From the NCBI GenBank assembly GCA_031284485.1, contig JAISZT010000095.1, forward strand, positions 3,063 through 67,062: a DNA stretch of 64,000 nucleotides. Reading direction: 5' to 3'. This document shows positions 18,001 to 21,000 of this stretch, one piece after another. Origin of the DNA: Desulfovibrio sp. GTDB taxonomy: Bacteria; Desulfobacterota; Desulfovibrionia; Desulfovibrionales; Desulfovibrionaceae. The position numbers were made by a program. Each line of letters starts with the position of its first letter. Position 1 is the stretch's first letter.

Positions 18001-21000
18001 GCAGTAATGATGGGAACATTCTCTACCTCTCTTGACTGATGGAAATATCATTTTTTTTTGCCCAGCGCGTCAATTGCGCGTGCTGATTGCGTATTTCTGT
18101 GATGCGCGATTCAGCAAGCGTTTCACGCGCCGCCACATACATGTCGAAAGCCAGAAGCGTCAGGCTGTCCAGGCGCGACTCCACAGTGAGATACGCCCCA
18201 AGTTTCCCGTTTTCAGCCATTTGCGGCAAAAGCAGTTCGCGCAGTATGGGCTTCATCAAAAAAAACACGCCAAGGCTCTGGCCGTGAGAACCCTGCTGCA
18301 CGGCGCGCAGTTTCACGAAACGGTCCAAGGCGGTTTTGACGGCGTCAATAACCATATCCTCACCGGTTATCGCATCGTAAACAACCTCTGCCGCCTGCCT
18401 TGTCATATCCCCCGCAGGATTGCCGAAAGGATCGGACGATGTGCGCACAAATCCTCTAGTTTCCAGCGGATACAACGCATACACCGCTTCTGTCCATTTG
18501 CGGAGTACGGCATCTTTGTTGGCGTTGAAACAGTCTGTGTTCTTCATACGTTTCACAGGGTAACAAGTCGGCCTTCTCATATAAGCCGGAACAGTGAAAC
18601 GCGTCAAGTAGCTTTTAAGATTTTGTGTGGTGTACCCGGAAATTTATTGCGCGGGACGGGCGGGGGATGTTCTCAGGGGCAGGGGGTGTTTGCGTCGCAA
18701 CGACCGTCAAGCACCAGCTCTGACGGCAGGGCTGAATCCTGCGGTCTGTCGTGTCCGGCACCGGAAAGCTGTTGGGGCTGGGTTCTGTTTTGTCGCATGA
18801 GCATGGCGGGCATGCCGTGGTATTCAAAAAACGGCACAGTTTGTGAGCCTGAAGAAAAAATATGGGCCTTGTTGCGCAACATTCTGAAGCGTAGCCAGAT
18901 CATCTCCGGCGTCCATGCCGGCAAGCCCTGTAAAATTGCCGCATCCTGCGCGCCGGAGAGGGCGTCCGCCATATTCATGCCGGTTTGCAACAACCGGAGC
19001 ATTTGCGCGATCTTGTATGTGTCTGCTTCTGTTTCGGCCAAGGGGTAGAAAGCCACATCCACATGGCCGGAAAGAATGTTCACGGCATCACGGCAGCGCG
19101 GGCAGGATGGCGAAAAGAATACCCGAACCGTAGCGTTATCCCCTGCTTCCATGATAGGCCAGGGAGTGCTTTGCGAGCGGGCGACCGCGCCCACGTTGAC
19201 GATGAAAAGCAGTGCCCAGAGCCAGAGCAAAAGAGAGCGGCTTGCCCTGTTCTGGGGAATTTGCGACTGGCTATAGTACGCCTGACGGAAGCTTGTGTAA
19301 CTTATGGCAAAAAATATGGCAATAACAAGACAGCTTACGCAGGGTGCGGTAAGCGCCATGAGCAGAAGCAGGCAGGCGTCACCAACAAGCGCCAGTGAGG
19401 CGAGTATATACCCCAAGGAAGCCGCGCCGGCCAACGCAAGCAGAGCAAGCACGGCGAAAAAGCCTGCTCCGACCCACCAGAGCGATATGCCGCCCAGAGT
19501 GAAATCCTGATATAGTGAACAGCCGGCGGTAACGCAAATATTTACGTCATTGCCAAAAACATTCCAGATACAAAAGGCCACCGCAAGGATTGCTGTACAC
19601 AGCGCGCCTGTGAGTATCTCACGGTTTTGTTTCATAGAGTCCCTGTAAAAAAGGACGCCCTGATCGGGCGTCCTTTTTAACGTTTTTTCGCCTTTTCAGT
19701 TTACATGGCTGAACCGGCAGCAGCGCGCTGCATTTTAATTTCAACTTTGTTTTCAAGTCCTGAATAGTATTCACGTAAAATAGCAAGCACTTCTTCGCGG
19801 CCAAAATGATCCGGCACTTCCGCGCCTTCTGAAAGCATCTTGCGCAGTTTTGTTCCGGAAAGAATAACGCGATCATCCTTGCCGTGCGGACAAGTGCGCA
19901 TGCTTGCCATACCATCGCATTTTTTGCAATAGAATGTCCAGTCAATATTCAGGGGCTGGCAGAGCAGACGTTTTCCATCATCAGACGGAGTGGGAATTTT
20001 GCGGAAAATCTCCTGGGCTTCAAACATGCCGTAGAAGTCGCCCACGCCGGCGTGGTCGCGACCCACCAGCAGGTTGTTGATGCCGTAGTTCTGGCGGAAT
20101 GTGGCGTGCAACAGGGCCTCACGCGGTCCGGCATACCGCATGTCCAAGGGATAACCGGCCTGGATGATAAAGTCTTTGACAAAGTATTTTTCCACCAGGG
20201 TGTCAATACATCTTACGCGTACTTCAGCCGGGATATCACCGGCCTTGAGCGTGCCCACAAGAGAGTGGATGACGACGCCGTCGCAGACTTCCACGCCGAT
20301 TTTGGCCAGATATTCGTGGGAACGGTGCATTGGATTGCGCAACTGCAGGGCAGCCACTTTCTGCCATTTGCGTTCATCCATTTTTTTGCGCAGTTCCGCG
20401 GGCGTCATATACACGCCGGGGAATTTTTGCGGAAATTCTCCCTGTGAGAGCACTTTTACCGGGCCGCCGATATTGTATTCCTGCTGGGCCATCACCATCT
20501 TCACGCCGGGATGGTCTTCCGGGGCCACTTCCCAGAATTTTTCGGAGTCGGGGCCTTCACCCTTGAACACCAGTTCGCATTCAAATTTTTTGTCGGCGTC
20601 TGTCATTGCATAAATGTCTTCCACCTTCATGGTTGCCATAACTTCGCCTTTGCGCACAAGGGCAACCTCTTCGCCGTTCTTGAGGGCTTTGGCGTCGGCC
20701 GCAGAAATATCAAGGGTAACAGGCACCGGCCAAAACGTGCCGTCTGCAAGCAACATTTTTTCGCACACGCTTTTCCAGTCAGCTTTTTTCATAAAACCGT
20801 TCAGTGGCGAAAACCCACCGATGCCCATCATGATCAGATCGCCCTTGGTGCGGGACGATATCTCAATCTGCTTCAGGCCCGCAGCCTTTTTCTTTTCGTC
20901 TTCCAAGGTTTTGCCTTCGAGCAGGCAACATACCAAACCCTTGCCGCCATGTGCTGGCACCAACTTTGACATTGCGAAATCCCCCCGTTTGATGTTGTGA

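Follow-up and report, generated by a model that had tools for sequence, protein, structure and literature searches.

We propose that an open reading frame (ORF) of Desulfovibrio sp. encodes a diverged, disulfide-generating member of the VKOR lineage, which is joined through a fifth transmembrane helix (TM) to a periplasmic DsbA-like domain and plays a DsbB-like role. The ORF (18673..19635, minus strand; 320 aa) lies between sat and dsrT-dsrMKJOP in a stretch of 64,000 nt from assembly GCA_031284485.1 (contig JAISZT010000095.1, positions 3,063 to 67,062), hereafter the window. We consider this reading likely: the active-site cysteines are invariant in the homologues compared, and the family can be linked to recognizable VKOR fusions by profile-profile comparison. 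By analogy with characterized systems, the protein is probably the disulfide-bond-making enzyme of Desulfovibrio.

Anatomy and conservation of the protein

The ORF begins at an ATG preceded by AGGGA and is made up of a VKOR-like domain of five TMs, a DsbA-like periplasmic domain and a tail that bears a Cys pair. An AlphaFold2 model built on 20 homologues (pLDDT 76.8) contains five long hydrophobic helices, at residues 9-26 (TM1; 19558..19611), 52-69 and 72-95 (TM2 and TM3; together 19351..19482), 100-124 (TM4; 19264..19338) and 135-154 (TM5; 19174..19233), all of these features being read from the minus strand like the ORF itself. TM1 contains C22, which is invariant in the genus and not in the wider family, TM3 bears the nearly invariant D86, and TM5 is a linker helix that returns the chain to the periplasm. 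In the loop between TM1 and TM2 (residues 27-51), which the model resolves into a short helix (37-44) and a small hairpin, sits the invariant pair C34-VTAG-C39 (19519..19536), the proposed shuttle pair. TM2 starts with the motif G49-I-S51-L-W53-W-x-G56 (19468..19491), in which the Ser and Trp are invariant, and the start of TM4, at its periplasmic end, carries the invariant CxxC C99-VS-C102 (19330..19341), the proposed quinone-reactive pair. Lys and Arg are limited to the N-terminus and the TM4-TM5 loop, and the predicted periplasmic loops carry none. Because the positive charges are confined in this way, the soluble domain, like the TM1-TM2 loop and the top of TM4, is predicted to face the periplasm, which fits an N-in, C-out topology.

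The DsbA-like domain occupies residues ~165-285 (18781..19143). Its modeled elements run from a strand (170-174) through the helix of C178xxC181, a second strand (194-198), helices at 203-261 and T-V-P268 to a last strand (269-272). Both the soluble CxxC (C178-PR-C181 in FSPSCPRC; 19093..19104) and P268 in T-V-P-F (18832..18834), the presumed cis-proline opposite that CxxC, are invariant. As modeled, the soluble domain is a DsbA-like thioredoxin fold with a CxxC, a cis-Pro loop and a helical insert at 203-261. It is followed by a Pro/Gln-rich disordered linker (residues 286-310; 18706..18780; pLDDT < 50), whose length differs between species as gaps in the alignment, and then by a C-terminal Cys pair, C313-DANTP-C319 (18679..18699), which is invariant in the genus and lies on a disordered tail; in the model the last ~35 residues of the protein are disordered.

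A first-pass annotation of this DNA had described five TMs, a loop CxxxxC, an intramembrane CVSC and a soluble CPRC, all of which are read from the DNA, with the helices present in the model. Its 'GISL-x-G' is there as a Gly/Ser motif whose exact form is GISLWW-x-G, and its soluble thioredoxin domain does have a CxxC-bearing thioredoxin fold, but the helical insert makes it DsbA-like rather than a plain thioredoxin. The C313/C319 pair, the DsbA-like insert and the failure of standard libraries to recognize a VKOR are points beyond that annotation.

The family to which the protein belongs comprises 346 clusters at 50% identity. In 36 homologues that share 27-76% identity with the window protein, C34, C39, S51, W53, C99, C102, F174, S175, C178, C181, P198, N255, P268 and G274 are invariant; because the motifs hold over such divergence, we take it that the Cys pattern is not due to chance. 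The first-pass annotation had staked its case on conservation of the Cys pairs, and all three are among these residues. A fourth pair (C313/C319 here), with a spacing of 4-10, occurs in 125 of the 140 representatives of the family, and was not found in the sister VKOR fusions in the merged alignment described below. Where a soluble CxxC motif was found (129 representatives), its commonest form is C-P-A-C (55), a dipeptide that is uninformative on an oxidase versus a reductase role. S51 is invariant in the window protein's family and variable in the sister fusions of the merged alignment; it may be the equivalent of the conserved loop Ser/Thr of VKORs.

Kinship with VKOR and a probable role in disulfide formation

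Order-wide genome searches with the Pfam VKOR model (PF07884) found, in sister families, ORFs of ~320-350 aa, the very ones that a profile of the window protein's family (A2) matched weakly. An alignment of nine such fusions, each of ~320 aa and all from sister families of the same order (A3; loci L057-L067), provides the main bridge. All nine match PF07884 (best E 1.2e-6), the first of them with 29 bits against a cut-off of 27.5 over profile positions 10-128 of 134, and a six-frame genome search scores most of them at 27-32 bits. When A2 is compared with A3 by hhalign, the match has a probability of 98.5% (E 3.3e-15) and spans 259 columns between TM1 and the cis-Pro, with the loop pair C34/C39, the membrane pair C99/C102, the soluble pair C178/C181 and P268 in register with their counterparts in the VKOR-positive fusions, where P268 falls on a G-V-P. 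Each domain also aligns by itself, the TM core at 84% (E 7.5e-6) and the soluble domain at 96.8% (E 2e-10), whereas cross controls, in which the domains are mismatched, stay at E 0.6-0.7.

Another genus supplies a second bridge, a 365-aa protein (genome G167) which has a weak VKOR and a strong DSBA match and which the TM part of A2 matches at 3e-8. The protein (L096:1218-2315, minus strand) has a TM domain resembling VKOR, with C-x6-C in the loop and CVYC in the membrane (Pfam VKOR 8.9e-4), combined with a canonical DSBA domain; with it, a single bacterial family holds a third diverged lineage of VKOR. In the alignment that merges the three lineages, C34, C39, G56, C99, C102, C178, C181 and P268 do not vary. 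The ORF also has its Cys pairs in the VKOR order, with the TM1-TM2 loop pair ahead of the TM4 CxxC, the reverse of DsbB. Judged from these alignments, the homology of the ORF to VKOR is transitive but solid, and the protein is best described as a distant VKOR-lineage protein that carries a fused DsbA-like domain, even though the VKOR model does not detect it directly. In other words, the VKOR-thioredoxin fusion of the first-pass annotation is upheld by profile-profile homology with all catalytic Cys pairs aligned, and not by any direct match to Pfam or to PDB sequences.

Structure comparison is of partial help. With the whole model as query, Foldseek places the Synechococcus VKOR fusion 3KP9 at rank 5, a weak match (E 0.12, probability 0.96, TM-score 0.30-0.36); 3KP9 and the related entry 4NV5 align over 231-234 columns and both domains, whereas the better-scoring DsbG/DsbA-type matches cover at most 178 columns. 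For the soluble part the whole model also retrieves DsbG, DsbC and DsbA. The merged profile (A6) finds the DsbG-like 3TDG (5.7e-4) and Vibrio cholerae DsbA (2e-3) across the whole soluble domain. It also matches Escherichia coli DsbB (2HI7) weakly (E 0.007), with TM3-TM4 of the profile on TM1-TM2 of DsbB, which is the register expected from the circular permutation proposed to relate VKOR and DsbB (PMC4555120). Neither Pfam DSBA nor Thioredoxin_4 is above cut-off for the window protein, and Thioredoxin_4 is weak in some members.

Other family assignments were considered. For the window protein Pfam offered nothing beyond Glutaredoxin (E 0.11), and NCBIfam had no meaningful match; public sources call it a 'hypothetical protein' or 'glutaredoxin-related'. 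Matches to BasB (NCBIfam; 16 bits against a cut-off of 230) and, in a few members, to DUF7144 (26.8 against 27) were dismissed as matches of TM composition. The window protein has no HMM match to DsbB (PF02600) or to MauE (PF07291), and its sequence lacks a CXC motif. A DsbD/CcdA-like importer of reductant was ruled out, as there is no Cys relay on the cytoplasmic face and C22 is not conserved in the wider family.

The direction of electron flow, the quinone acceptor, the substrates and the part played by the tail are our proposal, and go beyond what was observed directly, namely the anatomy, the conservation, the homology, the phyletic pattern and the dispensability of the orthologue in D. 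vulgaris Hildenborough. The mechanism is drawn by analogy with the Synechococcus VKOR-thioredoxin fusion and with DsbB-DsbA. Hypothetically, the disulfide of C178-C181 would be reduced by the cysteines of exported proteins, or by those of a separate DsbA-like protein of 270 aa. Electrons would then pass from C178-C181 to the loop pair C34-C39, on to C99-C102 at the top of TM4, and from there to menaquinone held in the four-helix bundle. The resulting menaquinol would be re-oxidized by the respiratory chain, which here ends in sulfate reduction. The tail pair C313/C319, on its flexible Pro-rich tether, might serve as a fourth relay or delivery station, or else as a regulatory pseudo-substrate. 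The separate DsbA-like protein is encoded elsewhere in the same genome (L001:1465-2277, minus strand, contig C87) and has a signal peptide, C-H-Y-C and a cis-Pro loop that reads G-T-P. It could be either a partner of the VKOR-like enzyme or a substrate in parallel.

The distribution of the family among genomes agrees with the quinone-linked, DsbB-like role put forward in the first-pass annotation. The genome that contains the window has no match to PF07884 or PF02600. All 33 genomes sampled from the genus Desulfovibrio carry this family and a DsbA-like protein; MauE never exceeds the cut-off in them, and a single one has DsbB. The ORF family is the only candidate found here for the DsbB-like role in the genus. 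MauE has been reported to replace DsbB in E. coli (bioRxiv 10.64898/2026.03.05.709764), and the two families are complementary: among 94 Desulfovibrionaceae genomes, 13 have both, 38 have this family without MauE, 43 have MauE without this family and none lacks both. Within the order, MauE occurs in nearly every sampled genus and is missing from Desulfovibrio proper and from four genera with small genomes. Gene context adds a further hint of a Dsb-type role: in one Desulfovibrio clade the gene stands immediately ahead of a ppiD-like gene for a periplasmic chaperone.

Several results weigh against our proposal. PF07884 gave no match to the window protein even at E<=1, none to eight diverse members of its family at E<=10, and, in six-frame searches, none in its own genome or in any Desulfovibrionaceae genome searched. 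A phmmer search of PDB sequences with the window protein returned nothing useful, and neither A2 nor A6 matched a VKOR chain in the PDB. An AlphaFold model of the TM part alone (pLDDT 75) retrieved only generic four-helix bundles from the PDB and BFVD. The Foldseek comparison with Synechococcus VKOR that the first-pass annotation had called for therefore gives a weak match for the whole model and none for the TM part. We do not count this outcome as negative, but because of the TM part the modeled VKOR fold is without independent confirmation. The complementarity with MauE (Fisher's test, 1.8e-15) is uncorrected for phylogeny, and at genus level it rests on five MauE-less genera, all of which have this family. 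Pairing with the free DsbA-like protein is not exclusive either: 50 of the 51 family-positive genomes have it and so do 28 family-negative ones, so that we discarded this co-occurrence as non-discriminating support. The orthologue in D. vulgaris Hildenborough is dispensable, as described below, which also counts against a Dsb role, although this strain has MauE as well, which could hide the loss. Finally, menaquinone in a sulfate reducer could be kept reduced to such an extent that running as an oxidase becomes marginal.

The last of these points leads to an alternative in which the same relay works toward reduction, isomerization or the handling of sulfur species, with the tail Cys pair as its working arm. 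In a sulfidic periplasm it would hold cysteines in the reduced state, rearrange disulfides or clear persulfides or polysulfides from proteins. A high ratio of menaquinol to menaquinone would bring the potential of the pool near DsbA-like potentials, the organism makes sulfide, the best matches of the soluble domain include DsbG and DsbC, which are of isomerase/reductase type, besides DsbA, and the tail pair has no counterpart in characterized VKOR or DsbB systems. On the other hand, the protein has no dimerization domain such as those of DsbC and DsbG, its architecture is that of known oxidases, and the family with which it is complementary, MauE, is a reported oxidase (bioRxiv 10.64898/2026.03.05.709764). 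We therefore regard a reductive or sulfur-handling relay as unlikely. As a separate observation, a locus in a genus without the window protein's family (L097; G175:C1:4335000-4338500) has a DsbD-like gene, with a CcdA-type membrane domain and a thioredoxin, that overlaps the start of a DsbA/DsbG-like gene; this pair looks like a reductive pathway.

Position beside the sulfate-respiration genes

Upstream of the ORF lies sat (sulfate adenylyltransferase; 19701..21017), and downstream lie a dsrT-like gene of 194 aa with an RsbRD_N domain, in the dsrT position (18023..18607), and then dsrMKJOP (12987..18019), all on the minus strand. NCBIfam equivalogs above cut-off identify sat, DsrM, DsrK, DsrJ, DsrO and DsrP, so that the location between sat and dsrTMKJOP given in the first-pass annotation is confirmed by curated models. 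As listed, the dsrT-like ORF starts at a TTG (18607); by-eye comparison with D. vulgaris DsrT suggests that an ATG at 18547 (MKNTDCF...) is probably the real start, and with that start the gap between the VKOR-like gene and dsrT would be ~125 nt. A terminator hairpin follows sat (19648..19678, minus strand; dG -24.7 kcal/mol, z -4.2), and its T-run ends 11 nt ahead of the ATG of the ORF. Relatives have a hairpin and T-run at the same place after sat, with different stem sequences, and in most of them there are 70-90 nt more ahead of the start codon, which is space for a promoter of the gene's own.

It is tempting to read this position as a functional unit, and the first-pass annotation raised such a link as a possibility. 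As a dedicated accessory of the Dsr system, the protein would mature or redox-service DsrJ and DsrO, or would exchange thiol electrons with the quinone pool of DsrMKJOP. The arrangement is not peculiar to this genome, a possibility against which the earlier proposal had been hedged: a same-strand dsrT or dsrM is downstream in 30 of the 43 Desulfovibrio loci that could be tested and in 7 of 17 from other genera, and sat is upstream in 21 of 40 and 6 of 17, respectively. No terminator-like site was found between the ORF and dsrT within the window. Rooted with an outgroup, the family tree shows dsr linkage in its earliest branches, that of D. vulgaris Hildenborough among them, and from this tree the adjacency looks ancestral for the family and long kept. 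The trivial explanation that the gene is a passenger between neighbours that are always adjacent was unsupported, as genera that lack the family have no sat within 8 kb of dsrT.

The wider distribution speaks against a Dsr-specific role. Of the 94 Desulfovibrionaceae genomes, 43 do not have the family, and all eight family-less genomes that were checked (six genera) carry dsrM. None of three sister-family VKOR-fusion loci examined is near sat or dsr. Linkage has also been lost repeatedly within the family, in unlinked clades and in one later Desulfovibrio clade whose nine loci (L021, L026, L028, L030, L031, L035, L038, L040, L048) have a same-strand ppiD-like gene in place of dsrT. This gene (SurA_N_3 and rotamase domains) encodes a periplasmic chaperone and is followed by glmS in 8 of the 9 loci; L040 ends inside ppiD. 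Where linkage is kept, the gap between the ORF and dsrT ranges from 80 to 740 nt, and the sat terminator stands before the ORF. In D. vulgaris Hildenborough, moreover, sat and the VKOR-like gene are separated by a YgjP-like metallopeptidase gene of opposite orientation (PF01863; DVU1294; L070:9054-9761, plus strand), so that read-through from sat is broken in that strain. An ORF with a similar N-terminal sequence occupies the same place at L076:9167-9898.

Published transposon data for D. vulgaris Hildenborough bear directly on the question. Its orthologue (genome G170; 1385824-1386771, L070:8025-8972) is DORF10446, a name found only in MicrobesOnline-based tables; GenBank's annotation lacks the gene, whose addition goes back to transcriptomic or proteomic evidence (PMC10102598). 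Its transposon density, scaled to the genome median, is 0.99 and 1.07 in two backgrounds, in both of which it is scored as non-essential; for the adjoining dsrT (DVU1291), scored as essential, the values are 0.046 and 0.018 (PMC10102598, Supplementary Table 5). The Fels 2013 data hold 33 central insertion positions in DORF10446, and the fitness assays started from a library grown in lactate-sulfate medium (PMC10102598). Insertions in the gene are at median density in three libraries made on lactate-sulfate. With DORF10446 dispensable and dsrT essential, sulfate respiration in this strain does not require the gene, and by the same data insertions in it are not polar on dsrTMKJOP. Loss of the gene is accordingly tolerated on lactate-sulfate in this strain; growth of mutants on sulfate was among the tests that the first-pass annotation had offered. 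Literature searches on VKOR or Dsb in Desulfovibrio, and on DVU1291-1294, turned up nothing pertinent in main texts.

Taken together, these data make a Dsr-dedicated accessory improbable in our view. The place beside the sulfate-respiration genes is old, yet it does not seem to reflect a part played in that respiration. Thus the first-pass annotation was right in its anatomy and family call and not in its Dsr-centred inference; the attractive idea that the gene belongs to the Dsr machinery is corrected here as unsupported. A modest link through shared regulation is plausible, and would make sense because menaquinol from disulfide formation needs to be re-oxidized by the sulfate-reduction chain. 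We give little credence to a stronger version, in which the position upstream of dsrT is functional, periplasmic thiols (protein cysteines or sulfide-derived persulfides) feed the menaquinone pool of sulfate reduction, and the tail pair is a fourth relay arm that reaches DsrJ or DsrO. If true, it would mean that oxidative folding or thiol detoxification is coupled mechanistically to sulfate respiration.

Significance and comparison with known systems

Dutton et al. 2008 reportedly surveyed the bacterial machinery for disulfide bonds and listed species that have DsbA or structural disulfides but no DsbB or VKOR. A 2026 survey of MauE still lists species with DsbA or structural disulfides that lack DsbB, VKOR and MauE (bioRxiv 10.64898/2026.03.05.709764). 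By the criteria of such surveys the genus Desulfovibrio, including the gut species D. piger and D. desulfuricans, would count as a gap of this kind, which the family described here probably fills. On this reading VKOR-type enzymes have also diverged past the reach of current family models. The finding also raises the question of how disulfides are formed in a strict, sulfide-producing anaerobe, with sulfate respiration as the presumable final electron sink.

That the protein has no kinship with VKOR, and is instead an unrelated Cys-bearing helical membrane protein that converged on the same design with a thioredoxin fold, would account for the missing direct Pfam and PDB sequence matches, the generic bundles found with the TM part and the fact that the sister family's own VKOR scores lie at the cut-off, but is very improbable given the collinear profile match over both domains with catalytic residues in register, a TM core that is significant where cross-domain controls are not, two independent bridging lineages and the match of the whole model to 3KP9.

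On the reading that we prefer, a diverged VKOR-lineage disulfide oxidase, the closest known systems include the VKOR-thioredoxin fusion of Synechococcus sp. (3KP9, 4NV5), with which the window protein shares five TMs, a Cys pair in the TM1-TM2 loop, a CxxC at TM4 and a TM5 that leads to a fused periplasmic thioredoxin-fold domain with its own CxxC. It differs in having no detectable direct sequence match to that protein, a DsbA-type helical insert and a tail Cys pair. The host also differs from Synechococcus in being a strict anaerobe with menaquinone as its quinone. The sister-family fusions are collinear with the window protein, with ~320 aa and with three Cys pairs, D86 and the cis-Pro aligned; unlike it, they lack the C-terminal Cys pair and reach the Pfam VKOR cut-off, and their identity to it is 18-20%.

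In Mycobacterium tuberculosis a VKOR in place of DsbB re-oxidizes a separate DsbA, Rv2969c (PMC3792642, PMC12421883). The present genome likewise has a separate DsbA-like protein, but here a DsbA-like domain is fused to the VKOR-like one and the free protein comes in addition. By analogy, the window protein would resemble E. coli DsbB-DsbA as a quinone-linked four-helix oxidase with two Cys pairs that re-oxidizes a DsbA fold; unlike DsbB, it has the VKOR order of Cys pairs and no PF02600 match. MauE is its probable functional counterpart in the same bacterial family, phyletically complementary to it, but belongs to a different protein family with a CXC active site. Fusions of VKOR to thioredoxin and to DsbA were thus already known, and what is new here is a subfamily that has diverged, lacks annotation and bears a fourth Cys pair on a tether.

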